A stretch of DNA of 63,804 nucleotides, filler included, from Lenisia limosa (Eukaryota; Protista; Breviatea), in the NCBI GenBank assembly GCA_001655205.1. It is 6 parts of 6 records of this genome, joined end to end, with 100 filler letters (N's around TTAATTAATTAA, not from the genome) between each part and the next. Parts side by side here need not be neighbours in the genome. Positions count along the whole stretch, not along the records: positions 31,790 to 53,808 come from LPNZ01008244.1; 5 more parts are not named here. One strand, written 5' to 3'. Below are positions 2,617 to 53,508 of this stretch, piece by piece (positions within the stretch are counted from its first letter, which is position 1; every line of letters starts with the position of its first letter). The translations under genes were made by a program, and so were the position numbers. Below the pieces are notes generated by a model. That model saw nothing but the letters and a program-made list of their open reading frames with translations, searched no databases and had not been told where the DNA came from.

Positions 2617-2620
2617 TCCA

Positions 2621-9575: not shown

Positions 9576-9589
9576 GAATGGCCTTTTTT

Positions 9590-13124: not shown

Positions 13125-16969
<3,845 letters not shown>

Positions 16970-34130: not shown

Positions 34131-36111
34131 TGTATCTTTTTCTGTCTTTAACGATTCTAAAGAAATAGAGTTTTCAACATGTCCTTGTATCGATGATGCT
34201 TGCCATTCTTTTTTGTTGAATATTGCAATTATAGAATGATGTTTTAGGTCGTTTTTCAAGTAAGGTGACGTGGGGATATGGGCAATTGAAAAATAACTAA
34301 AAAGACGGAAATGAAAAGAGAAAAAAAAGAAAAAAAAAATACAGAAAAAGAAGGATTATAGTCTAATATCAATTCACCCAATCAATACACACGTTTAATT
34401 CAACTGATTATTACAATTAGAGACATACAAAAACGTGCATAAGGCAAGCTTGGATCCTAGACACAGGCGAGGAGTCACAAACACCTCCAAATACCAGGGA
34501 ATGTTTGCCGCAGATGGTACCAATTCGCTTTGCTAAGTTTGTGGGACCAGTCCATCCCACTGCAGTCCCTCACCCTGCCGCTGGAGCCCGAGAGCGCCTG
34601 GGACATCCGTACGTTCGCTACCATCAACATTGTCAACAATGTACATATTGTAATACATATGATTCTATACATACATACACACCATGCAGGACATTTACTG
34701 ATCAAGTAATTGTTGACAGCACCTTTTCACTGAAGAAATCAGTAAATAAAGTTTGAACTACATGTACATACATATATATATAAATCTACACGATATGATA
34801 TGGCTATCAGATATGATCCGATTTATGAATATCAGATCAGATTCTATGTATGTCCATTGTATATAAGTCTCACGTAATTGTTTCTCTCTTACTTGCCTAA
34901 TTTAGGTTATTTATTATAACTTCACTATGATATTTTGTATTGTGAAAAAGTTAACACTGCAGGACCCCCTCACACCGAATACATCACCTCTTGTGCAAGT
35001 ATGTAGTGAAAGAGAACTACCAATATGTCTATCGAGTAATGCTCTAGGGTTTAAGCTCTGTAATTCCAATTTCCATAAGTTACTTGATAAGACGGATGAG
35101 TTTGCAATGTTTGATCGAAAGGGAGGCCACCGCCCTTTTCGGTGATGACACGCTCGACCTGGAGCCCCATGTCCTGCTGACTCGGCTGCAGAAAATTGGA
35201 CGGGACCTGTGGCCGTATGTGGCCTCCAATAAGGCCTTTACCACCATCACCAGCTGGCAGGACGCCGTGAATCTATCAAAGGTGGGTGGTTGTCTGTGAT
35301 TCTGCTCTTCTAATATTTTTTCGAAAGGTGGATCTCTTCCCGGCATGCGCCCTCTCAATGCCATTTTCCACATAAAGAGCTTGCAATGGATTGCCTGCAA
35401 TATTGTTTTATAACTTAGGGGGGGGGGGCGGTATTATGTTAAAACAATTCGTAGACTATTGATATTCATCGAGGAAATATTGTGACAATATGTCTGTTTC
35501 GGTCTGATGTGTGTGTGTGTGGGGGTCAATTGCTGTTTGATGTCTTGTTATTGTGGTCTTTTTTAGCCCAATGGTGCATATTGGGATATTGCTTGACAAT
35601 ATAGCTCGGTGCAACGGTGAATAACCGGATCAATGAGGCCAAGCGGATTTCAGACTTTGTTTGCGGCCATGTGGTAAGCTATGAGTACCAAAAGTGCTAC
35701 CTGTACTCACTCACTCCTAGGACTTCTAACGTGGGAAGCCTTCTCACTCCAAAATACAAATACATCTTTGGTTTTATTATTCTCTGGTACCTCCTGAATC
35801 AGTTGTAGAGGTCCTCCTGGGTTATTTTAGAGGGGCTTATATTCATAGATAGCTGTGTTACAAGGAAAATAATATTTCAACGGCTTTTGTCAAATAACCT
35901 GGTTTCATTGATATAAACATATCGCATCGTCCATTCTTTTTTTCTTTTTCCTGAATAACAACTTTTGCCTCTTTATTCACAGTTTCTTTGTTTCAGAGTT
36001 CTATTGAGTGATAAAACATCAATTTTGAAACAATGAAGAATAGGTTGTATATATTTGCCCCTTAAAACTATTTTTTTCAACTATATTTGGAAATAGTCGA
36101 AATATTTAAGC

Positions 36112-36117
36112 TTAACC
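36112..36117. repeat. Left target-site duplication TTAACC
   Basis: Identical hexamer at 53503-53508 immediately outside the right TIR. Confidence 0.9.
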
Positions 36118-36156
36118 CATCATAAGCAGCTAACCCGAAAAAGGGGGGGGGGTTTT
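36118..36156 (+). repeat. Left terminal inverted repeat (39 bp)
   Basis: CATCATAAGCAGCTAACCCGAAAAAG10TTTT is the exact reverse complement of 53464-53502. Confidence 0.95.
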
Positions 36157-36749
36157 TTTAGTTTTCAAATTTTCACGTTTTTTCATTTTTGATCACACTC
36201 TATAAAATGGGGACAAAAAGCACCACAGTGAAGGAGTACACCGCCATATGTGTAGCAAGCACCCCAAAAAGCACCGTAAAGCAAAGCAAGGGAAATAATT
36301 CTTAACTTTTATATTTTCATTTTCGATCTCACTCTAACAAAGCACCCAAAAAGCACCATAACAAAACAAAAGCACAACAAAACTTCCTCAGCTAATCTCA
36401 CACTTCATAGTTTTATACGTTACATAACGCATTTTTGGTAAAAAGTATACTGAGACAACCACTTCTCTTGATACCGATTGGGCCTCCCTTGGAAAAGTTC
36501 AAAAAAAATATATATTTCTGTATATAAAATGCCCAGAACAATATCAGTAGTATATAACCAATCCAAAAAATCAGCTATATGAACACAATATTATTATTCC
36601 TATACAAAACATCCAGTTAGATATGGGGACCGCGCGGGGAAAAAAAAGTTTTCAAAAATCGTTGTTTTTTTATAGTAATCACTAATCAATGATCTGTATT
36701 ATTAAATATCTGGAATCACAAATGACAAAATATTTATATATTAAATCAA

Positions 36750-37322
36750 TTAGTATACTTTGTCTTGAGCATCGACAACCTGAGAACCATCAGTAGCAAA
36801 GGTGATTTTATACACTACAACCTTAGAGCCTTTAATAAAACACAACCCGACAGTGGCTTTTTTACTGCATAAAGCGTCTACAGAAAACAAATCCTTAAAT
36901 TCGTCGTATGAAAATTTTTTCAATAAATACCACAGCACTCCAGATTTTTTTGGACACAATTGGTCAACAGATTCATGATGAACTCTCATATAAGAATTAA
37001 TACTTTTGAGTAATTGACTTCTAACTTTCTTAGAATCATCACCAGTACTAACTTTCAAATGAATTTTAAGGAAATTTTTTTCAAATCCTTCGTTTTGTTT
37101 TAATTCTTCTATTAGTCCTTCTTTCGGTTTAACACCAAGAACTTCATCATCAGATACATCTTCATCATCAGATTCATCAGATTCATCAGATTCAACACAA
37201 TTTCTAAAATCTAAATGTAGGTAAAAATTTTTACCAATATGATTAGATAAGCTTAAAATAGTGCCATTTCTTTCCTCTTCCTCGCTTTCAACAATAGAAA
37301 CAACAGCATTAGATATATCCAT
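36750..37322 (-). CDS. Viral hypothetical protein (190 aa) with an acidic SDE repeat
   Basis: The ATG at 37322 (MDISNAVV, A-rich context) is preferred over the upstream start in the ORF track. Contains VESDESDESDDEDVSDDE. Confidence 0.7.
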   Translation of the reverse strand: MDISNAVVSIVESEEEERNGTILSLSNHIGKNFYLHLDFRNCVESDESDESDDEDVSDDEVLGVKPKEGLIEELKQNEGFEKNFLKIHLKVSTGDDSKKVRSQLLKSINSYMRVHHESVDQLCPKKSGVLWYLLKKFSYDEFKDLFSVDALCSKKATVGLCFIKGSKVVVYKITFATDGSQVVDAQDKVY

Positions 37323-37729
37323 ATTTGTTAACCGATAAAAAAACAAACAAAAAAAAACACATAAAAATTCATTCCAATACCTCTTTTTCACTTAGTTTGA
37401 AGCTACAGTTAGAATTTTCAAAAATAGAAATTTTTGTTGAAAAACGGGGCTTAGCCACTAAAACCAGCCAATTCTGACTCATATAATATATGTATAATAG
37501 TATCACTAAACAGTTCCAGGGGGAAAGGGAAAAATCACTTTTTTTGATTTTTTTTTTGAAAAAGTTTTTGAAAAAAATGCAAAAAAGTTCAAAAAAAAAA
37601 AGAAGTTGAATTCATTAATTATTTATTGATTCTATGAAAGGGATTTTTGTTTAACAAAGAGTAACAGCTAGAAAAGAGTCAATAATGTTAAAACTAACTA
37701 TATTTTAAGTTAACGCAACCCCATGTATT

Positions 37730-38785
37730 TTAGATTTCTCGTATATTTCCACTTCGAGTCATTTTCGGAATATGCTGCCTCTGAACATTTTCCTTCTCAA
37801 TTACAGGCAAATAATCAATGTTTGTATGACCTGTATTAAGTAATAGATCCTCTTCATAGTAAAATTTATCATCAGTATCTCCCTTTTCGTAACCTTCACT
37901 TAAATAGTACTGCGTTGGATTTGTTTTTCCACGCTTTGTTGACTTATATATTATAAAGGTTTTTTCACTCCAGTTAGGAGAAACATGCCTGTCACGATCC
38001 ATTCTATTTCCAATAAATTTTCTCACTACATCCCCCACCTTTAATTTTCCTGGGGGTATATCTTTATATTCTTTCTTTTTTGGTTCTGCGTTGTGAAACT
38101 GAAGATTAACTGGTCTTTCATCAGTGGCACTGTGTACCTTGTGATTATACGCCCATACAGTATCCGCTAAATATGGTTGCCAGTCATAATTTACTCGCCC
38201 AGTGTTTAGTTCAATTTTTTTCATACGCTCATAAAACGGCAAACTAATTGTAGCATTGACACGCTCGACATAACTGTTTTCATTTTTCATATATGGCGTA
38301 TTAATTATCAAGTGACTTGGCCTTCCGTTAGGGCATCGTTTTGTTTTTAAATTATCTCTAAACAGTTTATTATCAAATTCTTTTCCTGCATCAGCCTGTA
38401 GTGCGGTTGGCCACTCCTTGCAGTCCGTTAGTATCATGTCTTCAAAGGCTGACCATACTTCCTGAGAGTTAGTTGACTTAATAGGCCGACTCATTAAATA
38501 TCTGCTTCTTACTATGAGGCAGTTTAGGCACAACACCTTCTTGGTACTTCGAGCACTAGCCAAGTAGAGAACATCAATCTGGTATCTATCATAATTGTTC
38601 TGGTACTGTGGGAAATGCACAAAGTTTTTAATTGGTCCCTTAGTCCTTTGGTAGATTTCATGTTCGCCTTGGTCCTTAACAAATGCCTCAACTTCAGCTT
38701 TCGTGTAGTCTAACCCTAATTCTTCAACAACATCGTAAAATCTTCCTGTGAATCCATACTTATTCCATGCTTCAATTAATTCCAT
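37730..38785 (-). CDS. Retroviral-like (rve) DDE integrase, Polinton type
   Basis: D71 (YQIDV), D132 (QADAGKEF), E174 (NSYVERVNATI), AYNHKVHS, and a C-terminal LKVGDVVR...PNWSEKTFII typical of Polinton integrases. Confidence 0.93.
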   Translation of the reverse strand: MELIEAWNKYGFTGRFYDVVEELGLDYTKAEVEAFVKDQGEHEIYQRTKGPIKNFVHFPQYQNNYDRYQIDVLYLASARSTKKVLCLNCLIVRSRYLMSRPIKSTNSQEVWSAFEDMILTDCKEWPTALQADAGKEFDNKLFRDNLKTKRCPNGRPSHLIINTPYMKNENSYVERVNATISLPFYERMKKIELNTGRVNYDWQPYLADTVWAYNHKVHSATDERPVNLQFHNAEPKKKEYKDIPPGKLKVGDVVRKFIGNRMDRDRHVSPNWSEKTFIIYKSTKRGKTNPTQYYLSEGYEKGDTDDKFYYEEDLLLNTGHTNIDYLPVIEKENVQRQHIPKMTRSGNIREI

Positions 38786-38815
38786 TTTAGTGAAACAAAA
38801 AAAATATTTTTTATT

Positions 38816-41800
38816 TTATGTTTTCAGGTTATCTCTAATTTTTTGGATCATTCTCTCTCTGCCCTCTTCAATTCCACACTTCTTATACAACACCTCAAGT
38901 ACCCTTGTGACATGCTTACTCTTACACCTCAGCATACATTTATTTTTGTTGTCAGAAATATTTATCTTGTTTAACAGTTCAGCCACCTCGTCAACAGCCT
39001 CGTATTCAATAATAGGAGCCTTAAACTTTTTTGCTTTAATGGCCATGCGTACATTCACACACTCCAAGTCATTTAAGTCTTTCATAATTTTTATGTACTT
39101 CTTTTCAAATACGTTTTCTACCATAGCAGCACTGAAGTAGTACACTCTACTTAAATAATGAATAGAGTGACAGTTTTCAAACTTCTTAAGCTTGGACTGC
39201 CTACCAGTCTTGTGAAACTGTAGTCTCTTCTCTAGTTTAAGTAAGTCTTCTTGACATGTGTCATCTAGTGATACACACTTACCTAAGTATTTCTTTAAGT
39301 CAATCGTGCTAGTAGTGTCTCCATACATATCGTTCTCATTTGAAACATACTTAGTGCTACCAACATAGCAAGAGATCTCATCTTCATCATTCATTTCGTA
39401 TATAAGGGCTACTCTAATTCTACGAGGCTTTAATTCAACCATCCCTTCATAGTTGTAAGGCTCAAAGACAATGTCTTTAACATTTTCGTAGTCAACAATA
39501 TTTACTTGGCTAATGTCTCTACACCTACTCAAGGCAACATAGAGTGCGTTTTTAGTGAAATATGGTTTCTTATTCCTTAACTCCACATGCACATTATAGT
39601 CACCTTCAATAGTACTACCTTGAACCTTGTGAGCTGTGATTGCGTAGGCCTTATCAAAGAACTCTGCAAACTCTGCTTCAGTTACCAATACGTTGTGGTC
39701 CAACTCCACTCGATCGTCTTGTACACCAGTGACAGTATAAATTTTCGAGTTCCAAATTTCTTTCTTACCTCTGTTAACCTTACCAATGTATTCTTCTCCC
39801 ACAATACTACCAGTGAAGCTGTTATTAATACTGTGCCTCAAACTATTGGTGTAGACAATATTTTTCTTGCACTTGGCCTTAGCTGTTGTATTGAACCCAG
39901 TGATATCACTCAGAGTAATAGTCTCACTTGCTGTAATCTTGTTCATAACTTCCAACGTACTGGGAGTATATCTGTTAGCATTTTCAATGTAGCTAAGTTT
40001 AATTAAATTTTTCATTTCTTGTTTCATCACATTATTATTCTCATAGTCATATGTCTGAACACTAACTGGAGGTAGTTGATTCATATCTCCAAACATAATC
40101 ATTCGTTTGTTCATATTCATAAGGCGACACATGGCGATCACACTTACACTACTGATTTCGTCAAGAAGAATTGTCTCGTAGTGGGCAACATTACTTTTGA
40201 AGAAGCTCTCAAGTGTATAGCTGTTATCACACCCTAGTTTCTTAAGGTTTTGAACAACGTAGTTAGTTGATGATACAACACAACAGTTCTCTGTCTCACC
40301 ATATACTTTGGTAAGCAGTGTTGTTTTACCACATCCAGCTCCGCCCAATACCATACAGTTTTCATTGTTACCAGGCAATTCAGTTACAATATTCCACTGA
40401 CTAAGTGTACATTCGATATCACGCCTTGGGTAGTCAGTACAAAGCAGTCTCTTCAAGTCCATAGGTTTATCCTTGTTGAGACGCAACCTATCTGAGTTCC
40501 TCGAAGCAAACCTCTCAAGTTTCTTGGAGCATTCTTCAAAGTAAATGGCGTCTGTTCTCACAGCTACTACCTCTTCGGGACATACATTAGCAATTTGAAT
40601 TAAGTTAATGAAGTTGGAATGGATAATTTGTCTGAAGATACTGCAGTTATCACTCACTTTACGCGACCTACTTGTGGATTTCACAAAATATAAGTCACCA
40701 ACCTTCTTCACCTTACTAAACATATTTTTCTCCATGAGGTCACGATACTCCAAGAAGTCAACCAAGTTACTGTCTGTACTGGTGTACGAGTTATTTGTTG
40801 CTGTATATTTTTTGTGAAGTGTACCAATGAAGCAGTTTGGCATATTTTTATTGTCCCCTAGTTCATACTTAATGTAGTCGAGCATTAACTTAAAGGTATC
40901 ACCCTTCAGGAATGAATAGGCTTGGATTCTCGCCGTAATTGCCAAGTCCAACTTAAGTGTCTTCAACACGTACTCAATAAAGATATAGTTATAAACTCCG
41001 GGCTTAAATGGAATATGGTTGATAGTGAATTGTTCAGCCACAAAGTACTCTCCACAAACAATATCGTCTGTTGGGTTGTATGTGTAAGGCTGGAAACTAT
41101 CCAAGTTGGTATATACTGGGAAATTATTTGTGTTGCTGTGTAAAATATTCCTATAGCACCTCTTCAAGTCAATTTCATAACATTCAGGTACAGGCATCTC
41201 TTCATCATCTTCATTATATTCTTGATCTGGAGTTTTTACTACACCAGTTATGGGACCAACAAAATTGTTATCAAAAATATTTCTTGTTCCCTCGTTATAG
41301 TACGACACAGGAATTTCACCCACCATACAGTCACACAATTTACGAGCCACTGATGAGTAGGTCATGTGATCGTCTCTAAACTGTTCGAAGGGAAACTTGG
41401 TCCTAATCTTTTTAGTATAGCTTAAGGGACACAGGCTAAACGAGTCAAGGCGTTCAATTAACATGGGACATTCTTTATTGGGATAAACCATTAGAGACAC
41501 TTCCATCCGTGAGTCAAAGTCCAAACTATTAATTTGAGTTCCTGTTGTTTCGTGAATAGCAGCAACAATTGGTTCAAGAGGATTTTTAATAATAATTCTT
41601 CTGTAACCTTTCGTGTAGTAGTCCATCATTTCCTTTTCAGAAAAGCCATAGACATCTTCACTACTGAGGTCCAGTGTTTTAGGGTTTAAGTCTTGAATTT
41701 CAATCATTCTGTCCTTGCCAGCCAGTGTGCGTATGTCGCCATTACCATACAATATTTGCTGAATAACGTCTACGTCAGTAATGAGGTCGACATGGTTGTT

Positions 41801-42976
41801 GTTCACATATATACAAATTACGTTGTCAGTTTTTTGGGACTTGTCATGTTTGTTGTACCGAACTAGTACCTTCTTGTCAGGTCCAACTACATAGGCCGTA
41901 ACACTCGGATACCTGTCAGTCCAAACATCTAGGTCCCCAATAGAATAATTACAGTCCTTACCAACAACCTTGTTGAAGTCATTAAAGAATTCAGGTTTAC
42001 TCATTGTTTTGAAGGGAGATCGGAACTTACACTTATCCCATAATATGGTAACTAAGCACTTGCCGTCCTCACTTGGAACATAGTAGTTTAAAAATTCCTG
42101 TTTCAAGACTTCTTGACCAATCAGTAAAGCATTAATATTGATTTTGTTAATGGGATGAATATTTAAAACTTCAATGAGTTCTACTTTGCCTCCACTATCA
42201 ATGAATCCATCCTCTCTGTCAAGTTCCTTCTGGACTGCAAACTGTAACTTAACGTTTTCAATCCCTGTATCCATGTCTTTTGGCACAAAGAATTGTTCTA
42301 CTGACTGCCATCTCGTCTTAGTGGTACCCAAACGATCTTCACCTCCGTCCTCTGGTTTAAATTCATAAAGCACAGTGACTCTGTAGAGATTATGGGTCTC
42401 AAACTTAGCTACATTATCAATGATTCTTGTTAATTCAGCAGGAGTAAACTTCTGGAGATTTACAACGCCTAAGGTATCATAGTTGTCCTCCAAAAGCTGT
42501 GTGATACGCGATAAGTCATTGGTTCTTACACCTCTGGTAGCTCCTAAGTTTTTAGTGTAATCACTCTTCTTAGTAGCAGCTCTAGTCTTACGCAGTTTAT
42601 CAACAGCATTCTTAACGTTCTTGACGGTTTTATTGTTCAAGACAATATTGTTATCCTTAGCGTATTGCTGGTACTTGTAGTCATTGGTTGTCTTATCAAT
42701 TGGATCAGCCCTAGCCCTTCTTGTACCCTTTAATATATTTGTAAAGTCAGGAGCAGTGTTAGCTCTCTGTTTTTGTTTCTCTTCAATAGCTTTCATTTGT
42801 TCCACTATAGCTAAATATTCTCTCTGACTAATCTTATGGCTAGTCGTATTGTTTGAATACTTGTTGTTATAGAGATCAATGTTGGCTTCTTTAATTTTGT
42901 TTTTTTTGTAGGCAGTTACTCCCTCAGAGGGGTCAATAACCTTTTTACCGTACCTGTGCAATTGGGTGTTTTTCAT
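38816..42976 (-). CDS. 1386-aa replication protein: OTU-like domain, derived family-B polymerase, SF1 helicase, GIY-YIG-like domain
   Basis: PolB motifs EIDLKRCY (D603), KNMPNCFIG and VRTDAIYF (D809). SF1 motifs GGAGCGKTT, LLDEIS, FGDMNQLPPV, AYAITAHKVQGST and LYVALSR. C-terminal IYE...CYVGST...RLQFH. N-terminal PSEDGKC (C307) and NNHVDL (H395). Confidence 0.85.
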   Translation of the reverse strand: MKNTQLHRYGKKVIDPSEGVTAYKKNKIKEANIDLYNNKYSNNTTSHKISQREYLAIVEQMKAIEEKQKQRANTAPDFTNILKGTRRARADPIDKTTNDYKYQQYAKDNNIVLNNKTVKNVKNAVDKLRKTRAATKKSDYTKNLGATRGVRTNDLSRITQLLEDNYDTLGVVNLQKFTPAELTRIIDNVAKFETHNLYRVTVLYEFKPEDGGEDRLGTTKTRWQSVEQFFVPKDMDTGIENVKLQFAVQKELDREDGFIDSGGKVELIEVLNIHPINKININALLIGQEVLKQEFLNYYVPSEDGKCLVTILWDKCKFRSPFKTMSKPEFFNDFNKVVGKDCNYSIGDLDVWTDRYPSVTAYVVGPDKKVLVRYNKHDKSQKTDNVICIYVNNNHVDLITDVDVIQQILYGNGDIRTLAGKDRMIEIQDLNPKTLDLSSEDVYGFSEKEMMDYYTKGYRRIIIKNPLEPIVAAIHETTGTQINSLDFDSRMEVSLMVYPNKECPMLIERLDSFSLCPLSYTKKIRTKFPFEQFRDDHMTYSSVARKLCDCMVGEIPVSYYNEGTRNIFDNNFVGPITGVVKTPDQEYNEDDEEMPVPECYEIDLKRCYRNILHSNTNNFPVYTNLDSFQPYTYNPTDDIVCGEYFVAEQFTINHIPFKPGVYNYIFIEYVLKTLKLDLAITARIQAYSFLKGDTFKLMLDYIKYELGDNKNMPNCFIGTLHKKYTATNNSYTSTDSNLVDFLEYRDLMEKNMFSKVKKVGDLYFVKSTSRSRKVSDNCSIFRQIIHSNFINLIQIANVCPEEVVAVRTDAIYFEECSKKLERFASRNSDRLRLNKDKPMDLKRLLCTDYPRRDIECTLSQWNIVTELPGNNENCMVLGGAGCGKTTLLTKVYGETENCCVVSSTNYVVQNLKKLGCDNSYTLESFFKSNVAHYETILLDEISSVSVIAMCRLMNMNKRMIMFGDMNQLPPVSVQTYDYENNNVMKQEMKNLIKLSYIENANRYTPSTLEVMNKITASETITLSDITGFNTTAKAKCKKNIVYTNSLRHSINNSFTGSIVGEEYIGKVNRGKKEIWNSKIYTVTGVQDDRVELDHNVLVTEAEFAEFFDKAYAITAHKVQGSTIEGDYNVHVELRNKKPYFTKNALYVALSRCRDISQVNIVDYENVKDIVFEPYNYEGMVELKPRRIRVALIYEMNDEDEISCYVGSTKYVSNENDMYGDTTSTIDLKKYLGKCVSLDDTCQEDLLKLEKRLQFHKTGRQSKLKKFENCHSIHYLSRVYYFSAAMVENVFEKKYIKIMKDLNDLECVNVRMAIKAKKFKAPIIEYEAVDEVAELLNKINISDNKNKCMLRCKSKHVTRVLEVLYKKCGIEEGRERMIQKIRDNLKT

Positions 42977-43029
42977 GTTGCTTCTAATTTATGGAAAAAA
43001 AAATAATTATTTTAGTTTTGAAAACAATG

Positions 43030-43356
43030 TCATTTTTTGCAACTAGCACAAAGCTTACATGGTCGACCATATTTCTTCTTAATTATTGTGTCACCGCACT
43101 TTGCACATTTGTTCAGTTTAGCGACTTCTTTGTCGTATACTTCTTGGCAGTCCTTGATGTTATGAAATTTTCGCATGTGTGTTTTATATGTTTCTTTTGT
43201 TTTATAGTCCTTATCACAAACGTGACAGGTGTATGGTTTTACCACTTGTGGTTTACATTTTCCTGTTTCAGCAGATTTAGCAGTGTGATAAAAGTACGCT
43301 GATCGAGAGAAGGGTTCGTTACAATCGGGGCAGTTTTTGTAAAATGGTTTTGTCAT
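43030..43356 (-). CDS. Small viral zinc-finger protein (C2H2 plus extra Cys pairs)
   Basis: CPDC...H, CHVCDKDYKTKETYKTHMRKFH (canonical C2H2), CAKC and CKLC. Confidence 0.8.
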   Translation of the reverse strand: MTKPFYKNCPDCNEPFSRSAYFYHTAKSAETGKCKPQVVKPYTCHVCDKDYKTKETYKTHMRKFHNIKDCQEVYDKEVAKLNKCAKCGDTIIKKKYGRPCKLCASCKK

Positions 43357-43453
43357 GCTTTTAAGATTTTTTAATTTTAAAAAATGATATTTTAAAAATA
43401 TATTTTTTTCGGAACTTATTTTTTAAATATATTTTGTATAAAAAACAGAAGAC

Positions 43454-43912
43454 ATGTCATTCCTAGACTTCGTAAAGAACGGTAGTGCCGCTACTACTAC
43501 CACCAATGCTACTAAAATCCCAAATTATGAGGATTGCGTTAAACCTAATGAAACATACTGCTTGCACAACTACACCAAAACTAAGAACAGTAATGGAAAT
43601 TATTATATGATCTTAAATTATTCCAAGGACGGTATTAAAGACAATGCTGAAGCTATGTTCGCTCATCCCTGTATGTTCAGAGAAGTAACTGCAGCATTTA
43701 AACATAAATCAACTGCCTTAGAAGAGAATTATAAAAATGCCTTTGTGTACTTCAAGTATATTGGTAAAACAAAGAAACTACTTAAGTATGTTATCAGATG
43801 TGAAAAGGGTGAACAATGTGCTCCGAGTTTTGGACTAGTCGATGTCGGAGATAGTGATAGTGATAGTGATGAACAACCCGAATATACTAAGTGTAGCGAT
43901 AGTGATGATTAA
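43454..43912 (+). CDS. Viral hypothetical protein, candidate ssDNA-binding protein
   Basis: Intact ORF with an A-rich start. Tyr/Phe/Lys-rich strand-like core and a strongly acidic tail (DSDSDSDEQPEYTKCSDSDD). The function is inferred. Confidence 0.6.
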   Translation: MSFLDFVKNGSAATTTTNATKIPNYEDCVKPNETYCLHNYTKTKNSNGNYYMILNYSKDGIKDNAEAMFAHPCMFREVTAAFKHKSTALEENYKNAFVYFKYIGKTKKLLKYVIRCEKGEQCAPSFGLVDVGDSDSDSDEQPEYTKCSDSDD

Positions 43913-43983
43913 ATAAAAAAATATTTTTTTTGGACTCCACTAAAGTTGTTTTGGTATATGCCAATAAAAAAAAATTTTTTTTT

Positions 43984-44388
43984 TTACATAAATCTTTCAG
44001 GTTTGATATACCGAATATTCTTTTTTAAGTAACGATCGCACTGCTTAAGCATACCAGTTACATCTTTGCCATGTATAAACTCGTCATAGTTATTAGTTCT
44101 AGCACTACACTTACCATAGCTACACAGGTCCCAAGACAGATCCCAGAGGTTAATGCAATCACCCTTCCATAAATCCATTTGGGCCATAATTTCTTTCATT
44201 GAAAAATAATTATTGGACTGCCTACAAAACATGCTAGCAGTTTCATCTGAGTGTAGTACTCTCTTATTAAGGTATGCTCCAAAATTTACCAGGAAGCCTT
44301 CAGTGTCTTCAAGTAATGCACATGTGTGTCTACGGATAAAATCCATATCTCTTATGTTGTCAATATTAAAATTACAATCGTTCGACAT
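43984..44388 (-). CDS. Viral hypothetical protein (134 aa)
   Basis: Intact ORF between intergenic palindromes, starting in an A-rich (AAGAAGATG) context. No motif recognised. Confidence 0.65.
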   Translation of the reverse strand: MSNDCNFNIDNIRDMDFIRRHTCALLEDTEGFLVNFGAYLNKRVLHSDETASMFCRQSNNYFSMKEIMAQMDLWKGDCINLWDLSWDLCSYGKCSARTNNYDEFIHGKDVTGMLKQCDRYLKKNIRYIKPERFM

Positions 44389-44451
44389 CTTCTTTTTTTA
44401 TAGTTTAAAAAAATGATAAAAAATATTTTTTAAAAAAGTAACTTTTTTGGA

Positions 44452-45765
44452 CTACTCGATAAACTTGTTAATAGTCTCGATGTTGTGTTCAGGATTATCT
44501 TCCTCGAAGTACTGATACAGATTATAGTACGGTATGGTCTTCAGCATATTGTAAACTGCAATACAGTAGTAGCCACACAGTGCTGTGTCATCATTTTGTA
44601 TTTGAATATCATTTCGAATAATTTGTTTATCCGCAAAATTGTTGGTAATCAGTTCCTCATCAGCTATACTACCGAAACTATCAAAGTAGAACCACAGCTT
44701 ACTATTTAGCTTGTAAAGCAGTACCCAGTGTACACCACCAGTTGTGTCTATACCGTCTTTAGTCTTCTTCATGTTACCAGTATTAATGATTGCTCCCAGA
44801 GTATCTTTTTTGGCAAAGTATTCTTTAATACCTTTTTCATCACTCATAAAGGTTTTTATATTGTACTTCTCCTCTATCTCTCTGTTACTGAGTGCAGGTG
44901 CATCAATACCAATATCTGGTTCTATGTCTTCTTCTTCTTCTCCTTTGTTGCTGTAAATCTGTTCAACATCATATAACTCGTTACGTACTATTACGTCCTT
45001 GTCAGCTTTTAACCCTTGCTTCATTCGCGGTTCTAATAGAGAGCCAATTAGTTTCCAGTGACCAGCTCTAACACGTGTGTGCTTAATCCTGTCTTGAGGG
45101 AAAAAGGCAATACATGGCTTGTCCTCCTCGTTATCAAAGGCATTGATGATTTCATTTCCAAACTTCACACTACGAACTCTACTCAGCCCCATGTTTTCTC
45201 CGATGAAGGTTGCAACCGCTATTTGGCTGTCATTCATGTGTCCAAACGAATAGAACGCCTTGGCATTTTCCTTGATTTCATTGAAGTCCATTCTACCATT
45301 CTTCCACTTGTGTACCACAATGGTTGGACTGATATTGAAGTGCCTGCCACTCGTGAACAAGGGAGAGATTTGTTTTATAACATCCTTGTGTACTATGTCA
45401 TCAAATATAACTTCATAGCTGATTTCATCTGGATGGTCTTTAGCTGCATCTGCTGCTTTTTTCTTAATAAACTCATAGTCTATACTTGTTGAGCTTAAGT
45501 CAATGATGTCTAATTTAATATTTCTTTCGGTTGCTAGTTCATCCAGTGTTTTTAATATGGGTTGGTCAGTTGAGGTCGTATATACCAAGTACCCTGTAGA
45601 CTTCCTGTCTTGAAGAACGTCAAATACTAAATGAAAAGTTTTTCCACTACCTGTTCCTCCAATCATAACTGTACCGAAACAGCCATCTGGAGTAAATTTA
45701 GAGCGATGGACTTTTTGGACTTTGTTTTGATCGTCCAATAATACTTGCTTTTTAGAAATTGTCAT
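44452..45765 (-). CDS. A32/FtsK-HerA packaging ATPase fused to an adenain-type cysteine maturation protease
   Basis: Walker A GGTGSGKT (K42), Walker B VIFDD and LFTSGRHFNIS. Protease GVHWV (H346), FYFDSFG (D362) and QNDDTALCGYYC (Q390/C397). Confidence 0.9.
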   Translation of the reverse strand: MTISKKQVLLDDQNKVQKVHRSKFTPDGCFGTVMIGGTGSGKTFHLVFDVLQDRKSTGYLVYTTSTDQPILKTLDELATERNIKLDIIDLSSTSIDYEFIKKKAADAAKDHPDEISYEVIFDDIVHKDVIKQISPLFTSGRHFNISPTIVVHKWKNGRMDFNEIKENAKAFYSFGHMNDSQIAVATFIGENMGLSRVRSVKFGNEIINAFDNEEDKPCIAFFPQDRIKHTRVRAGHWKLIGSLLEPRMKQGLKADKDVIVRNELYDVEQIYSNKGEEEEDIEPDIGIDAPALSNREIEEKYNIKTFMSDEKGIKEYFAKKDTLGAIINTGNMKKTKDGIDTTGGVHWVLLYKLNSKLWFYFDSFGSIADEELITNNFADKQIIRNDIQIQNDDTALCGYYCIAVYNMLKTIPYYNLYQYFEEDNPEHNIETINKFIE

Positions 45766-45812
45766 TTTGTAGAAAATAATTTTATAAATATAATTTACAA
45801 AAAGAGTAAAAA

Positions 45813-47573
45813 ATGAAATCAGACCCAGAGAAGGAAAAATCTCGTGCGTTGAAAATACGAGAGCTCAACCAACTATTAGGGTTAGAGTACGCTTACCGTG
45901 ATGAAAGGTACGCCAGTGTTCTCGATGAAAATGGGAATATAAATAAGACTGCCACCAATGCTGTTGCAAAAGTACATAATAATGCAGCTAAAGCTAAAGC
46001 TGAAATTATAAAGGATGAAAACTTTAAGTATAACTCAGCGATGGAACAAAACAAGGCCATACGTGAGGACGTTGAAGATATTAAGGATATACTTGCTGAA
46101 AAACAATCTCAAAAAAAGTCTGTGGTGACAAGTGCATCGGGACCTGAATCTGAACCCGAACCTAAAAGAAAATATCAAAATAAACCCATGGCTCGCATAG
46201 TTGACATGAGTAATAAACCACGTAAACAAGGTGTGAACAAAACTAGCAGTAATCTGGAACCCATGATGTATAATAGTAGAAATGTCGTAAAGAAGACCAC
46301 CAAACCGAACTATGACGGCAAAGAGTTTAACTCTGCCGAAGATGCAGTTCTCCAGTTTATGGAATTTAAGAACAGTAAATCAAAGTATGATGGGTGGAGA
46401 CGAACACCTCCCGGTAAACTTACCAAGGACAACCCGTATATTTCCTTTAAGGTTAAAAACGAATATGCAGATTTTACTCCAAACGAATTTAATGAAGTAA
46501 AGCAGTACATACAGAAAATTAGAAACATTCACACGAATCACTTTGGTATGTGGCTCTTCCAAATTATTAAATATGATAAGGATGTTATTTCAAGTGAGGA
46601 CTTAAAAAGAGATTATCCAGACAATTACGAAGGTTGGGGACGTACTGAAGAAGAGTTTGCAGAGGCCCAGAGCAGGGAATGGGTGGAGAGGACGTTTGAG
46701 AAAGCTAGGAAGAGAAGAGAATTGGAAGCTAAGGAACAAGATGAAGCGTTCGCACAATTTGAAAAGGACAATGTCGACCCAACATGGTCACCTGAGGGGG
46801 AGGAGTACAATGGTAGACAACAGGAAGCTACAATGGATCGCCTCCAAATGAATAAACTTGATATTGTGTTATTAGGCAGTACTATTGCCAAAAAGATAAG
46901 CGAAGTTGTCGACCTAATTGACATAACACCTCGAGACTTCTTCTACATTATCTGGGAGTCTAGACAAGATGTAAATCCTGAAGGACGTAAAGCTTTGGAA
47001 GCTTTTATTGCTTCAACTGATGAAATAGAAGGTGCAGGTAAAAAACAAAAAAATAGACGTGGTAAAAGTCACAACTCTATGTGTATTTATCAGGATGGTA
47101 CACTTGGAAAACTTAAGTTTAATATGGGTGAACTACTCTTTAATAACTTTGCTAGTTGTACTGACCAGGACGGTAACGTTGTGTTGAATGAGGCAGTAAG
47201 TCCGCACATTACCGGGTTCTTAACAACAATGCATAGTACTAAGTACAAAGATATCAGCAAGGAAGATAGAGATCAGATTAGGAAAATTGTTGTTAAAGCT
47301 GATATTATTCCGAATAAAAATAATTCAAAGTTTAAACTAATTGCTGAGGATCACGAACCTTTGTTGATTCCAAAGAAGGCTACTAAAAAGTTCCTGAAAG
47401 AAAAGTTTAATGAACTCGTTGGAATTTATGCACAAGGTAATGGCGAACCTGGTAGTAACATCCATGATAACTTGCTCCGGATTATTAAGGAGTTAGAAGA
47501 GAGAGACACTAAACCTAGTGAAATTACTATGATGAAGAGAAAGATGATGGGCGGACAGAGATTCTTCTTCTGA
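45813..47573 (+). CDS. Viral 586-aa protein, candidate core/virion protein
   Basis: Long intact charged ORF with adenain-consensus sites IEGA|G and MMGG|Q. The C-terminal ELVGIYAQGN...IIKEL helix is reminiscent of conserved uncharacterised Polinton proteins. Confidence 0.7.
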   Translation: MKSDPEKEKSRALKIRELNQLLGLEYAYRDERYASVLDENGNINKTATNAVAKVHNNAAKAKAEIIKDENFKYNSAMEQNKAIREDVEDIKDILAEKQSQKKSVVTSASGPESEPEPKRKYQNKPMARIVDMSNKPRKQGVNKTSSNLEPMMYNSRNVVKKTTKPNYDGKEFNSAEDAVLQFMEFKNSKSKYDGWRRTPPGKLTKDNPYISFKVKNEYADFTPNEFNEVKQYIQKIRNIHTNHFGMWLFQIIKYDKDVISSEDLKRDYPDNYEGWGRTEEEFAEAQSREWVERTFEKARKRRELEAKEQDEAFAQFEKDNVDPTWSPEGEEYNGRQQEATMDRLQMNKLDIVLLGSTIAKKISEVVDLIDITPRDFFYIIWESRQDVNPEGRKALEAFIASTDEIEGAGKKQKNRRGKSHNSMCIYQDGTLGKLKFNMGELLFNNFASCTDQDGNVVLNEAVSPHITGFLTTMHSTKYKDISKEDRDQIRKIVVKADIIPNKNNSKFKLIAEDHEPLLIPKKATKKFLKEKFNELVGIYAQGNGEPGSNIHDNLLRIIKELEERDTKPSEITMMKRKMMGGQRFFF

Positions 47574-47575
47574 TA

Positions 47576-47593
47576 AAAAAAAATATTTTTTTT
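47576..47593. terminator. A8-TA-T8 palindrome between convergent viral stop codons, representative of an element-wide motif
   Basis: Perfect 18-bp palindrome filling most of a 22-bp gap between convergent genes. Similar palindromes occur in most viral spacers. The terminator role is inferred. Confidence 0.5.
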
Positions 47594-47595
47594 AT

Positions 47596-48306
47596 TTAGA
47601 CCTTCGTAGTATACAGCTCCTCATAGAAAGGAACGTGAGGAAACATTCTATGTCTACCATAGCCCTCCTTTCGTTTGCTGTAAGGCAAGGATGAAAGTCC
47701 TCCTTTTTTGTTGTAAGGTAGTGTTGAAAGTCCACCATTAAATTTACCTTTGCCGTATTTATCATAGGCATAGTCAGCAGCTTTAGTAGCTACATAAGAA
47801 GCAGCAAAGGCCGCAACTGGACCGAAGCCACCTTGTTTGTAATAGTCACCACTACCCATATCGACATCATCACCATCATCGCCCATACTTTCCTGTGCTT
47901 TGTCCTTGTAGTACTTAACTTCATCCTTAAGTGAGTCGATTTGATCAACATAACCGGCTACTTCTTTTGCTATAGCAGCTGGGTCACTCTTAACTCGCTC
48001 TACAAAGTCTGCAACAGTGTCTTCAAATGTGTCAACATTTTGTTCAATTTTATCTGCATATTTTAGTCCTTTTTCAATTGATGCAGCAAAAGGAACTTCT
48101 TCTTTAATTGTGTCAACAACCTCACTTGCTATTGGGTTCTTACGTACTTCCTTACTAATTTTGCGTCCGGTATTCGCAGCCTGTTTTACAGTGCTCCTTG
48201 CCTTCTTCGCGGTTTTCTTTAGTTTCTTGAACAAACCCTCTCCCTCATATTCGTAGTTGAAATCATCATCGCTGAAATCATCATCCTCTGGTTCAAAAAA
48301 TGACAT
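47596..48306 (-). CDS. Viral 236-aa protein, candidate protease-matured membrane-penetration or core protein
   Basis: Acidic leader (aa 1-23), then EGE|GLFKKLKKTAKKARSTVKQAA (basic amphipathic helix). Several GG and GxG sites at the C-terminus. Confidence 0.7.
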   Translation of the reverse strand: MSFFEPEDDDFSDDDFNYEYEGEGLFKKLKKTAKKARSTVKQAANTGRKISKEVRKNPIASEVVDTIKEEVPFAASIEKGLKYADKIEQNVDTFEDTVADFVERVKSDPAAIAKEVAGYVDQIDSLKDEVKYYKDKAQESMGDDGDDVDMGSGDYYKQGGFGPVAAFAASYVATKAADYAYDKYGKGKFNGGLSTLPYNKKGGLSSLPYSKRKEGYGRHRMFPHVPFYEELYTTKV

Positions 48307-48380
48307 TGTTTTCGAAATATTATACTCTTTTTGAAAAAATATATTATTTTAAATTATTTTAAAAAAGAACCAAATTAAAA

Positions 48381-49808
48381 ATGTCAACGAACTTTATTGA
48401 ATCCATGTTGCGTGTCGATGACAAGAGCCATGATATTACGGTCGAAAGTGTTATTGACCACCAAATAGAAAATACTACTTCACAAAATGAACCAACTGTA
48501 ACTTTTAAGTTAAGTACAGACGCGTCTTCATTCATTGAAACAAGTACTCTCTCTATTTATTGGAGAGAAAAATTAGAACTAGCAAATGGAGGCGTTTATA
48601 ATCTTGCAGCTACTACTGCTGTTGACGATACTGCTGAAGCTATATCTGGAAAACAATCCTTCGTCTATGCTAATTCTTATCACCAAATTAAGTCAATTAA
48701 AATATACAGTAATGGAACAGATATCTTACCTCCTGTTGATAATTCTACTGCAGGGATTATAGCGGATAACTATATGGATAAATATTACACTAATGACTAC
48801 TTGGATACAACTGGCCTTACTGAATTTGTTTTCAATCCAAGAAGTGAGAACACTGCTGCTCTCGGTAAAGCCGTTTATATTGGTGGTAATTATGTTGAGC
48901 GTGAAATTTTGCTTCCAGTGTTGTTCCCATTTATGAAGACTAATCCCGTTTTACCTCCCTCTTCGTCATATATGTTTGAGATTACTTTCAGAGACTCTTC
49001 AGAAAGTATTTGTAAAACCAGTGATGCTGCACTTCCTGTAAAGATAGACCGTGAAAAGGTTGTGCTAAAGAATCGTAAAATTAAATTGTCAGATAAAGGC
49101 AGAGCAGCTTACTTGCAAGGACTTTCCATTATTGACGATAAAATTGTACACACATACCTTCATCAAAGGATTTCAAATCCTGTACAAATAGGGTCAGCTA
49201 AGGTTACTGAGACTAGTACTTGTAATGTTGACAATCTCGCAACAGCGATAGACACTAAGGTTATTGATTGGGGTGCTTCTAGGGCAACTGGAACCTATGT
49301 GACAAGAAGGCTGAAAAGTCATCAGGTTGACATTGGTATTGATACATTTCCTAGGAATGGATATGAGAACAAGCTTGCCACCAATGATGTATTCAATTCT
49401 TATGTCCGTTATAGACGTGCGTGTATGAATTCAAGCGCTACACACAAAGATGTAGTGTTAACTATTAAGGACTTTAAAAATGCAAACGGAAAATGGCTCG
49501 ACTGTATTGACGTGTTACCAGACCGGATTCATCGCCAATTTCTGACAACTACCAATAATCAAGTTATTGATAAAATTGAGTTAGAAAATGCACCTGGGAA
49601 TTCTAATACTTATTTGTACACTTGTACGTTTGGTGATGCTGTCCTACTGTATGATGGAAAGCAAAGTGGAAATTTTAAAACTATTTATACCAAAACTCCA
49701 CTGGAAAACAATCCAAAATTGGATGTTAAGAAAACTATGCGCCAAAACAAAGCAGCAATGAAAGCAAGGAATGCTAACCCTAATGCTGAAACAGAAATTG
49801 AGAGCTAA
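48381..49808 (+). CDS. Major capsid protein (double jelly-roll, Polinton-like)
   Basis: 475 aa and beta-rich. VTFKL...FIETSTLSIYWREKL, HQIKSIKIYSNGTDI and LLPVLFPFMKTNPVLPPSSSYMFEITF follow the Polinton MCP pattern. It lies in the structural module near penton and fibre. Confidence 0.75.
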   Translation: MSTNFIESMLRVDDKSHDITVESVIDHQIENTTSQNEPTVTFKLSTDASSFIETSTLSIYWREKLELANGGVYNLAATTAVDDTAEAISGKQSFVYANSYHQIKSIKIYSNGTDILPPVDNSTAGIIADNYMDKYYTNDYLDTTGLTEFVFNPRSENTAALGKAVYIGGNYVEREILLPVLFPFMKTNPVLPPSSSYMFEITFRDSSESICKTSDAALPVKIDREKVVLKNRKIKLSDKGRAAYLQGLSIIDDKIVHTYLHQRISNPVQIGSAKVTETSTCNVDNLATAIDTKVIDWGASRATGTYVTRRLKSHQVDIGIDTFPRNGYENKLATNDVFNSYVRYRRACMNSSATHKDVVLTIKDFKNANGKWLDCIDVLPDRIHRQFLTTTNNQVIDKIELENAPGNSNTYLYTCTFGDAVLLYDGKQSGNFKTIYTKTPLENNPKLDVKKTMRQNKAAMKARNANPNAETEIES

Positions 49809-49858
49809 ATAATAAATTATTAAAAATTTAAAAAATATTTTTTTTTATATTTAAAAAA

Positions 49859-50506
49859 ATGTCATATCCGAAAATACCAATTCAAGATAATCCATACCTA
49901 CCTTCTGCACCACCACTTACAAAATCCGCATCTATCTTACTTAAATGTGGGTGTAGTGTAGCATATGAAGATAGAAAAAAACCATGCATTAAACACAACG
50001 ACAAAAAGAAGTTGATTGAACTTACACTAGATGAGGAACGTGGTGCAGAAAAAATTGTTCCTGATGAGTTAATCAAATATAACGAATTTAAGGCTTGTGC
50101 CCGAAAATATTTTAATGTTAAGGACATCTACAATTCCGAAAGCGACAAGGTTGAGGTGTTCATCATCCAGAAAAATAAATTTGTAAAGAGAAAGAGTAAC
50201 TGGATAAAAATTGATGAAAATAAAATCCAGGAATACACCAGTTATATGGTTAGTGAACAAGGGACTACGGATATGGAGTTGTGTGTAAAACAACACGGTA
50301 AGGCTGTCAAGGTTCTAACTAACAAAGAGTACAGAGAAGGGTTGCGCAAGCAGAATGGGCAACTTAATATTTCAAGTATCTATAAAAAAATAACAAAACG
50401 AGGTCTCCTCATTGGAACAGGCACAGTTATAGCGTTTTTTCTTAACCCTGTCCTTGGGGCTTTCACTGCCTTTTCTGGGGGTGTCTATGAAAATACAAAA
50501 AAATAA
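49859..50506 (+). CDS. Viral 215-aa protein with an N-terminal PSAP motif and a C-terminal hydrophobic segment
   Basis: MSYPKI...YLPSAPPL at the N-terminus and LLIGTGTVIAFFLNPVLGAFTAFSGGVY at the C-terminus. Confidence 0.7.
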   Translation: MSYPKIPIQDNPYLPSAPPLTKSASILLKCGCSVAYEDRKKPCIKHNDKKKLIELTLDEERGAEKIVPDELIKYNEFKACARKYFNVKDIYNSESDKVEVFIIQKNKFVKRKSNWIKIDENKIQEYTSYMVSEQGTTDMELCVKQHGKAVKVLTNKEYREGLRKQNGQLNISSIYKKITKRGLLIGTGTVIAFFLNPVLGAFTAFSGGVYENTKK

Positions 50507-50550
50507 AGCAATTTAAACCTTTAAAAATATATTTTTTTTGAAATAAAACA

Positions 50551-51306: not shown

Positions 51307-51334
51307 ATAAAATATTTTTTTTTATATTAAAAAA

Positions 51335-53188
51335 ATGGAACTACCAAGTGGATGGATTACGAGTGGGTCAATAAAAAATGGGACCACTGCTTCTGGAGAG
51401 ACCGTATCTTCTGTAGCAGGACCTGCCGGGATTGGGTTTAATTTAGATGATGATTTAAACTTTGATATTGGTGGAAAGAAATTGGTGAACGTCGCTTTGC
51501 CTGAAAATGATGGTGACGTATGCACTAAAAAATACGTAACAGAAAAAATAATTGAAGACAATATATTAGACGCTACTGCCATACAGAACAGTGCCAACAC
51601 TATTGGTGCTCAAATTACAGCGTTAAACACTACACAAGCTGGAGTTTATGATGATAAAATTTTACCAGCATATAATCACTCAGTTGAGGAGCATTTTGAA
51701 CCGCAGTTATTTCAAGACCATCTCACTGCCCACTTTGCCGGAACATACTNNNNNNNNNNNNNNNNNNNNNNNNNNNNNNATTTAAAAGTAGAAGGTGACT
51801 TTGAAGCAACTGGTTTCAAAATTACTCAAAGCGATATAGTTTATAATAATAGAACGTGGGCAACCCAGTATAACAGTGATCCTGTTGACAACATTGTTTT
51901 CAATATGAAATCGCCAAATGTTTTCAATGTTAGAAGTATCTCATTAACTCTGGAAGCAAGTAAAATTTCTGATGGAAGTAGATGTGGCGCTGATGATGTA
52001 ACTGTTATCTTATCCATCAATAGTGTTGTTAAAGTTCAATTAAATAATTATAAGTTTACCTCATGGGGACTGAATACTATAGCAATAGCTGATGTGAACA
52101 ATCCCATTCAAATTAATGCTAATGATATTATACAAATTGAAATGATAAATAATTCTGCTGATAGAAAAATAGTAACTAAGTTTCAAGACAAAATTGACGC
52201 TGAATTTATTAGTTTGAACATGGATGGAGATTTATCAATCGAAAAAATGATTGAGCTCAGGCTTGTTGGAATTGAAATTGATACATCTACAATACTAGCC
52301 ACCGAATGGGATGAAGGTGAAGGAAGACATATTCTAAATGTAAGTGAACGATTAAAATTAGGTGCTTTTGATAACGTTGAAACTGAAATGAATACAATGA
52401 GTGACCGAATTGATAGTGTAGAACTTAATAATACCAATCAAGACATATTTATTGCTGATCATAGCACTCGGATTACTAATTTAGAAGCTGCAGGTGGTAC
52501 TGATTTAACACCGCTTGAAAACAGAATAACAACTGTTGAAGGAACTTCTAATACAAACAGTGGAACCATCACTAATATTAATTCAACCCTTGGAAACCAT
52601 ACAACTTCCATAACTGGTCTAAATACAACAGTAAATCCTTTTATGGGATACTTTAACACAATCAAAGAAAAATTTAACAAGATGTTAGAATTACATAGTG
52701 TAATAGGACATATGGCTGCTCAATTCCAAACTACAGGACCTGCTGCTATTCCTAATGGTCAATTAACTACACATATTCCTTTTGAAGCTGGTTCTAATAT
52801 ATCAGGTTATGTCGAGGGATTAACCAACGCTTCAACAGGGAAAATGTTAATATTAAAGGATTGTTTATTTCTTATTGAAGCAAACTTATACTTTGATAAT
52901 AGTTTAGACGTGTCTAACACAGGTAGTCTAAATCTTGCAATAGCAGTTAATGGTGAAAGTAATTGGATGCAAACCGTTAGGTCCCATGAAACAGCACCAA
53001 CTTTCACTATAAATAGTTCCAAATTAATGAACTTATATGCTAACGATGAAATTCAGTTAGTTATGGATCATAATAATCGAGATGGGTTGACACATGGTAA
53101 TAACACTTACTATACACATTCTTCATGGTCTTTGACTATTATCCAGCCTAAAGAAATGAATAGTTTATCACCCATATCAGACTATTAA
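51335..53188 (+). CDS. Fibre/spike protein with a coiled-coil stalk and C1q-like head; frame across the 30-N gap unverified
   Basis: Fibre collar motif KLVNVALPENDGDVCTKKYV, heptads (RIDSVE..RITNLE..RITTVE), and a C-terminal TGKMLILKDCLFLIEANLYF...IAVNG...SSKLMNLYANDEIQLVM. Confidence 0.7.
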   Translation: MELPSGWITSGSIKNGTTASGETVSSVAGPAGIGFNLDDDLNFDIGGKKLVNVALPENDGDVCTKKYVTEKIIEDNILDATAIQNSANTIGAQITALNTTQAGVYDDKILPAYNHSVEEHFEPQLFQDHLTAHFAGTYXXXXXXXXXXXLKVEGDFEATGFKITQSDIVYNNRTWATQYNSDPVDNIVFNMKSPNVFNVRSISLTLEASKISDGSRCGADDVTVILSINSVVKVQLNNYKFTSWGLNTIAIADVNNPIQINANDIIQIEMINNSADRKIVTKFQDKIDAEFISLNMDGDLSIEKMIELRLVGIEIDTSTILATEWDEGEGRHILNVSERLKLGAFDNVETEMNTMSDRIDSVELNNTNQDIFIADHSTRITNLEAAGGTDLTPLENRITTVEGTSNTNSGTITNINSTLGNHTTSITGLNTTVNPFMGYFNTIKEKFNKMLELHSVIGHMAAQFQTTGPAAIPNGQLTTHIPFEAGSNISGYVEGLTNASTGKMLILKDCLFLIEANLYFDNSLDVSNTGSLNLAIAVNGESNWMQTVRSHETAPTFTINSSKLMNLYANDEIQLVMDHNNRDGLTHGNNTYYTHSSWSLTIIQPKEMNSLSPISDY

Positions 53189-53463
53189 ATAAAGAATATA
53201 TTTTTTTTGAGTTACTATCAAAGGGGAGGCACCACGTTCTTTGTTTTGTCTTTTATATTATTGCTCTGTTGATGTTTGTTATAAGAGGTGATTTGAGGTA
53301 TTGGTATCCAACTTAAATCCTCATATAGTTCATGCTTGAGGTGTGTCTTTTTGTGTTGTCGCGTGCGTTTTGCGTTGTTCTGTGTAAGGAGAGGTGATTT
53401 TAATGGGATGTTGCATTGGCGTCCATTCTGAAAAAAAAAAGTTTTGAAAAAAAGTAATTATTT

Positions 53464-53502
53464 AAAACCCCCCCCCCTTTTTCGGGTTAGCTGCTTATGA
53501 TG
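53464..53502 (-). repeat. Right terminal inverted repeat (39 bp)
   Basis: AAAAC10TTTTTCGGGTTAGCTGCTTATGATG is the exact reverse complement of the left TIR. Confidence 0.95.
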
Positions 53503-53508
53503 TTAACC
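53503..53508. repeat. Right target-site duplication TTAACC
   Basis: Matches 36112-36117. Confidence 0.9.

Follow-up and report, generated by a model that had tools for sequence, protein, structure and literature searches.

The locus raises two linked questions: what kind of element ends in CATCAT, and whether a terminal repeat this short can be both a replication origin and an integrase substrate. Retroviral integrases normally use CA-3' ends, and the initial annotation of this Lenisia limosa locus proposed, for an element reading 5'-CATCAT...ATGATG-3', a minimal protein-primed origin handled by an integrase of different end specificity. We analyzed the locus within a window of 63,804 nucleotides (the whole stretch of DNA studied). 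The combined evidence of ends and genes makes it probable that these are the ends of an integrated polinton-like virus (PLV), whose 39-bp terminal inverted repeats (TIRs) would be both protein-primed origins and the sites joined by an rve integrase, with TTAACC duplicated as the target-site duplication (TSD). Directly observed are the TIR and TSD, the set of genes, and the conservation of vOTU and palm residues.

Boundaries of the element

The element spans positions 36118-53502 (17,385 bp, ~17.4 kb) and is integrated in the chromosome of L. limosa. Its ends comprise the following features:

36112..36117, no strand: left TSD copy, TTAACC; host DNA abutting the left TIR
36118..36156, plus strand: left TIR, 39 bp, starting with (CAT)2 and containing A5-G10-T4; likely origin and integrase site
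36157..36749, no strand: left non-coding arm with short direct repeats
53464..53502, minus strand: right TIR, 39 bp, identical to the left one and ending in ATGATG
53503..53508, no strand: right TSD copy, TTAACC; host DNA

The arms at 36118-36156 and 53464-53502 show 100% inverted identity over 39 bp, including the CATCAT start and the G10 run, and a blastn comparison of the outer ~800 bp of both arms yielded no further colinear block past base 39. The first 20 bases of the TIR occur in only two places in the window, with up to three mismatches allowed, and matched in none of 100 shuffles. The chance probability is ~2.8e-4 for a direct repeat of 6 bp at a fixed boundary and ~0.02 (about 1 in 50) for a terminal doubled triplet. 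Direct repeats of at least 4 bp were found in 6 of the 169 boundary registers tested, all six being nested shifts of the TTAACC repeat; the 36118/53502 register is the only one that combines symmetric ends with the full 6-bp repeat, whereas the shifted registers give 4-5 bp and unequal ends. The repeat comparison, together with the junction contigs described below, confirms the CATCAT...ATGATG ends, the 39-bp TIRs with G10, and the 6-bp TSD of the initial annotation.

The G10 run is unremarkable for this host, with 23 runs of at least eight G or C in the flanks. Three further candidate features were rejected: a TIR hairpin (folding no better than shuffles, z = -0.26 and -0.64), a resemblance between the TIR and the left flank (equalled by 1122 of 6349 host 20-mers), and insertion into a short host exon (no candidate passed the filter). 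The non-coding arms are unequal, ~590 bp on the left versus 275 bp on the right. The left arm contains direct repeats within 36180-36404, namely a 28-nt pair 134 nt apart and three copies of a 12-nt unit, none of them mirrored at the right end; these are candidate protein-binding or packaging signals.

Among the host regions of the window, a phosphoglucomutase gene with more than a dozen short introns was read by eye at 13128-16970 (plus strand), and from this gene the host was judged, likewise by eye, to be an intron-rich eukaryote whose introns are short. Positions 17459-17725 (minus strand) hold a WD40 exon. Inverted arms of 50 bp, 86% complementary and 281 bp apart, are located within a host intron at 14598-14978 and possibly represent a small non-autonomous transposon.

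Contig support for the insertion

Contigs from two public runs of one study, X1 and X2 (the latter poly(A) RNA), were compared with positions 34500-43300. One X1 contig spans the left junction unbroken (35619-36147) at a depth of 42, against 36-44 in the flanks, and a loose contig end at 36118, compared by eye, reads the right flank in reverse; X1 is possibly the source of the assembly, so this junction support is not independent. The X1 listing, which covers 7 of 11 loose ends and 16 of 30 pieces, shows neither a third flank nor an empty site. The depth at the ends fits one insertion, at ~36 per junction, on the assumption that the repeat-core contig has twice that depth. These observations suggest a single fixed copy of the element in the host, a reading that stays suggestive because X1 may be the assembly source and contigs drop rare variants.

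The element interior has no X1 contig cover within 34500-43300, possibly through a filter effect. Among the X2 poly(A) contigs in the same interval, only ORF1 is covered (36779-37319, depth up to ~1700), and the integrase and polymerase have no RNA contig cover. Contig depths cannot rank genes by expression; ORF1 is possibly the one expressed gene of an otherwise quiet provirus.

Gene content

The element encodes 13 main ORFs, none of them broken by a stop, at a coding density of 89%, and has a GC content of 35% versus 42% in the flanks:

36750..37322, minus: ORF1, 190 aa, acidic stretch, no family
37730..38785, minus: rve-type DDE integrase, 351 aa (Pfam rve, E = 4.8e-4, under the curated cut-off)
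38816..42976, minus: pPolB-S1H (Tlr1-like) fusion, 1386 aa
43030..43356, minus: C2H2 zinc-finger protein, 108 aa (Pfam zf-C2H2, E = 2.9e-5, just under cut-off)
43454..43912, plus: ORF without assigned function, 152 aa
43984..44388, minus: ORF without assigned function, 134 aa
44452..45765, minus: A32 packaging ATPase fused to adenain-like cysteine protease, 437 aa
45813..47573, plus: ORF without assigned function, 586 aa
47596..48306, minus: ORF with Gly-Gly-rich tail, 236 aa
48381..49808, plus: double jelly-roll (DJR) major capsid protein, 475 aa, very divergent
49859..50506, plus: ORF without assigned function, 215 aa
50551..51306, plus: probable penton (minor capsid protein), 251 aa, from position and size
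51335..53188, plus: probable fibre/spike, 617 aa, labelled from position and composition
38800, 43917, 44419, 47579, 49831, 51310: spacers with a palindrome (see below), including both spacers between converging genes

The integrase shows 26% identity to the corresponding gene of L026, an IMG/VR contig; its D-D-E triad was read by eye, and a search of the PDB gave no match. The ATPase part of the fusion matches Pox_A32 above the cut-off, and the profile of the protease part weakly matches adenovirus protease structures (E = 0.006-0.013). The two form a single ORF here (44452-45765) and are separate adjacent genes in L026.

The capsid protein is predicted from structural features to be a clear DJR protein of a very divergent lineage. 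Its ESM Atlas features score 0.96-0.97, with TM values of 0.72/0.84 to the PF21738 cluster; the predicted structure has a pLDDT of 33. The one sequence relative among 6683 candidates from a collection of 5.8 billion was the capsid protein itself. The candidate penton has one weak tblastn match, in locus L035 (E = 6e-4), and matches no Pfam family. A 30-N assembly gap (51750-51779) lies inside the probable fibre/spike ORF. The 236-aa ORF (47596..48306) could be a core protein that the protease cleaves. The 215-aa ORF (49859-50506) gave a weak Pfam match to Cry1Ac_D5 (E = 4.5e-4, under cut-off) that is probably due to chance or to a generic beta-sandwich. A relationship of the 586-aa ORF to an ORF of L026 was rejected (E = 0.19).

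An A-tract/TAT/T-tract palindrome occurs in six intergenic spacers and one coding place of the element and nowhere in the flanks; it may act as a transcript-end hairpin like that of giant viruses. None of 4227 Rfam families matched. Splice-donor counts were 13 versus 17, with the strands not separated. Besides pPolB-S1H, no other polymerase or primase was found among the 13 main ORFs.

The polymerase

The polymerase consists of a variable N-terminus, a candidate terminal-protein domain, a vOTU protease, the palm, an SF1 helicase, and a GIY-YIG-like tail. The key residues are C307 and H395 in the vOTU, and D603 (motif A), K710 and N714 (motif B), and D809 (motif C) in the palm; the vOTU Cys/His pair and the palm D/K/N/D set are invariant in all seven aligned sequences, the motif C column being loosely aligned. 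Palm motif C reads RTD, with the first Asp missing, and motif B has no usual Tyr. The helicase, of the SF1B type, is fused to palm motifs A-C. In a Foldseek search with the vOTU region, OTU domains were the top match and most of the matches listed, which included three phi29 polymerases, all with E of at least 0.24. The GIY-YIG-like motif at the C-terminus is conserved in the polymerase alignment, as judged by eye, and has no Pfam match. Pfam likewise gave no DNA_pol_B_2 match in this polymerase, and the alignment contains no invariant acidic residue between vOTU and palm.

In the candidate terminal-protein region, a Ser261-Gly-Gly loop preceding a strand fits the published description by eye, making Ser261 the candidate linking residue. 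The region is predicted with a pLDDT below 50 and an Atlas score of 0.82, its comparison with the canonical pPolB profile gave no match (probability 0.7%), and the segment taken as its second helix has strand-like periodicity; prediction for the whole polymerase was also low (pLDDT 44). Relatives of the polymerase amounted to 4 of 6632 and 3 of 7990 candidates, self included, with a best identity of 31%, and the phage matches (35 records) are helicase-only.

Both the activity and the protein priming of pPolB-S1H are contested. Krupovic 2016 (PMC5499653, available text) considered such palms inactivated, because motif 4 is lost and motif 3 altered, whereas Krupovic 2024 (bioRxiv 10.1101/2024.03.18.585575, available text) predicted pPolB-S1H to be active, protein-primed, and vOTU-processed, with loss of the first motif C Asp tolerated in active enzymes. 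Because the polymerase is a pPolB-S1H fusion and not a canonical pPolB, protein priming is here a prediction. The proposal of a protein-primed origin thus holds in part: the ends fit a jump-back mechanism and the element encodes an integrase and a polymerase of priming-type architecture, but the pPolB-S1H fusion had been missed.

Search for other copies and relatives

An 18-mer of the TIR was found in six stretches of viral contigs, all of which diverge right past the match, and a 20-mer was found in no metagenome contig. Locus searches retrieved 35 loci in total (19, 0, 0, 0, 1, 9, and 6). No terminal repeat pair was detected in any of the 16 loci compared with themselves, and no CATCAT-led inverted pair in any of the 35; because the majority of these loci represent just a portion of their contig, the missing end pairs are no evidence of absence. 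In L026, positions 1081-14806 encode pPolB-S1H followed by the rve integrase, along with penton, ATPase, and protease; its ends contain no repeat pair. Among the viral and metagenome contigs and loci searched, we found neither a second copy nor a relative whose ends are defined.

No CATCAT end of a polinton, PLV, or virophage was found among the open-literature papers listed; the one occurrence of CATCAT consisted of letters inside a primer. As end sequences are rarely printed and the scope was limited, this negative result is weak. For the Tlr1-like group, the available portions of PMC5499653 and 10.1101/2024.03.18.585575 contain no published end motif, and those of PMC10120064 and PMC12721341 give no end motifs.

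A model for replication and integration

By analogy with adenovirus and polintons, the free form of the virus would be a linear dsDNA. An N-terminal domain in the pPolB-S1H polyprotein, set free by the vOTU protease, would serve as the primer, receiving C-A-T opposite template positions 4-6 and slipping back to positions 1-3. The SF1 helicase would unwind the duplex, and the displaced strand could re-form a duplex origin via the 39-bp repeat. The integrase would then join the TG-3' ends to a 6-bp staggered target, a step suggested by the integrase gene and the TSD; joining probably involves no trimming, given that the whole doubled triplet is retained.

The initial annotation also noted that human adenovirus ITRs start with CATCAT, a triplet repeat used in jump-back, and the CAT reiteration is borne out: in adenovirus, template positions 4-6 direct the synthesis of TP-CAT, which then jumps back to positions 1-3 (PMC5175343, available text). 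An identical template is present at the end of the L. limosa element. That adenovirus also has CATCAT is most likely due to convergence under a shared jump-back constraint. A more specific version of the model is a tentative possibility: an undescribed polinton-related lineage, with this element as its first known member, in which the 39-bp repeat would make up the whole of both origin and integrase site, and a pPolB-S1H lacking an exonuclease would prime by an adenovirus-type protein-CAT jump-back. If true, it would be direct evidence that the widespread pPolB-S1H fusions are protein-primed polymerases, and a sign that surveys requiring TIRs of at least 100 bp miss short-TIR proviruses. An element with pPolB-S1H as sole polymerase and a doubled triplet offers a small, defined substrate to settle priming, and its 39 terminal bases could likewise serve as a test substrate for the action of a polinton-type integrase at TG-3' ends.

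Alternative explanations

The alternative that deserves most attention, a minor but real possibility, accepts the ends as genuine integrase sites and denies that CATCAT is a priming signal: the palm would be inactive or primed otherwise, and the triplet would be chance or a relic. This would agree with the 2016 inactivation argument (PMC5499653, available text), with the RTD motif C and the lack of the usual Tyr in motif B, and with a terminal-protein domain unconfirmed by pLDDT, Atlas score, profile, or periodicity; moreover, the doubled triplet has a chance probability of 0.02 and is known from one copy only. Nevertheless, the palm retains both metal-binding Asp positions and the vOTU its Cys/His pair, activity is predicted by the 2024 re-analysis (10.1101/2024.03.18.585575, available text), and none of the 13 main ORFs encodes another polymerase or primase. 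It is unlikely that the 39-bp TIR is secondary, a longer repeat having been lost or replaced at one end with only the tips re-homogenized. The identity of the tips, the perfect TSD, main ORFs without an interrupting stop, the lack of any decayed extension past base 39, and the 46-bp TIRs of intact Mavericks (PMC8097293, available text) all speak against such a history, even though the arms are unequal (~590 vs 275 bp), the left repeats are unmirrored on the right, truncated endogenous virophages with regenerated TIRs have been described (PMC8547959, available text), and most PLV TIRs measure hundreds of bp (PMC12220804 and PMC10748475, available text).

Two further readings concern where the CATCAT end came from and where it lies. 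Inheritance of CATCAT from a common ancestor with adenoviruses, in a lineage close to their origin, appears quite improbable. The element shares its six terminal bases with the adenovirus reiteration, an adenain-like protease is present, and adenoviruses are thought to derive from polintons (10.1101/2024.03.18.585575, available text); but few triplets are available, so the match is cheap, the polymerase is fused to a helicase and lacks conserved exonuclease residues, the capsid protein is nearest to polinton/PLV clusters, and an adenain-like protease is common to all polintons. We give almost no credence to a true left boundary 1-2 bases further out, with a TTAA(C) target and a piggyBac-like insertion: the left registers 36116 and 36117 do give 4- and 5-bp direct repeats, and TTAA is the piggyBac target (PMC5544889, available text), yet with these registers the two ends differ from each other, the element gave no match to a piggyBac transposase family, and both junction contigs converge at 36118. 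An integrated PLV with origin-bearing TIRs, the preferred reading, is the one carried into the comparison below.

Comparison with known systems

The element is a polinton-related PLV with a pPolB-S1H, its group unplaced by a tree. It resembles the Tlr1-like PLVs, such as Tetrahymena Tlr1, in its vOTU-palm-SF1 helicase protein (1,000-1,400 aa in that group) with a C-terminal nuclease, represented here by only a GIY-YIG-like motif, as well as in its rve integrase, DJR capsid protein, A32 ATPase, and inverted repeats. It differs in the presence of a maturation protease, fused to the ATPase, whereas Tlr1 lacks a protease according to the available text of PMC5499653. The Maverick/Polinton elements (Polintoviricetes) include Gosseviruses and a group 2, whose members often have a helicase-polymerase fusion in place of pPolB (bioRxiv 10.64898/2026.06.19.733378).

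With adenovirus, the similarity is the terminal CATCAT, in a comparison that covers the first six bases; adenovirus differs from the element, which has an integrase and a TSD, a helicase-fused polymerase, no separate terminal-protein gene that we recognized, and no canonical pPolB. Mavirus-like virophages share the rve integrase, the 5-6-bp TSD, an exonuclease-poor pPolB, and integration in protist genomes, and are distinguished by TIRs of 0.2-2.3 kb, a separate SF3 helicase, and a virophage-type capsid. Reported TIRs are 615 bp in mavirus (10.1101/068312), 0.2-2.3 kb in EMALEs (PMC8547959), and ~150 nt in a transpoviron (PMC11788076), and phi29 is reported to need only 6 nt (PMC4974454).

The Maverick/Polinton elements share with the L. 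limosa element a size of ~17 kb, TIRs, a 6-bp TSD, a doubled terminal motif, and genes for rve integrase, adenain-like protease, ATPase, and capsid protein. In the available text of PMC8097293, the TSDs of intact vertebrate Mavericks measure 6 bp and their TIRs 46-1,447 bp, and the ends are (AGT)2, (AG)3, or (AC)3A, interpreted as jump-back signals; their integrases, therefore, already act on non-CA ends. Against this background, three contrasts drawn at the outset are overstated: polintons as a rule already have doubled end motifs, 3' ends other than CA, and 6-bp TSDs; the 39-bp TIR is only slightly shorter than the 46 bp at the lower end in intact Mavericks; and Maverick integrases already use such ends. 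Hence neither end specificity nor the short TIR sets the element apart in kind. The features that do differ from Mavericks are the (CAT)2 motif, the 39-bp TIR versus 46-1,447 bp, and a capsid protein without sequence relatives. The general TIR range is given as 100-1,500 bp (PMC10748475, available text), and rve integrases in PLVs typically produce 6-bp TSDs (PMC12220804, available text); the same large PLV survey filtered TIRs at 100 bp-8 kb, so short-TIR elements may be under-counted.

Measured against a canonical polinton, the element has the rve integrase, a TSD within 5-8 bp (mostly 6 bp in polintons), a tandem terminal motif, and the DJR capsid/A32 ATPase/protease set; it departs in lacking a pPolB with an exonuclease domain and in having a 39-bp TIR, outside ~100-1,500 bp and a near miss of 46. 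The possible novelties are the CAT triplet, a TIR that falls seven bases short of the published minimum, and the presence of such an end on a pPolB-S1H element. The surprise is limited by the doubled-motif end architecture already known from polintons, and these novelties are modest ones on a known design.
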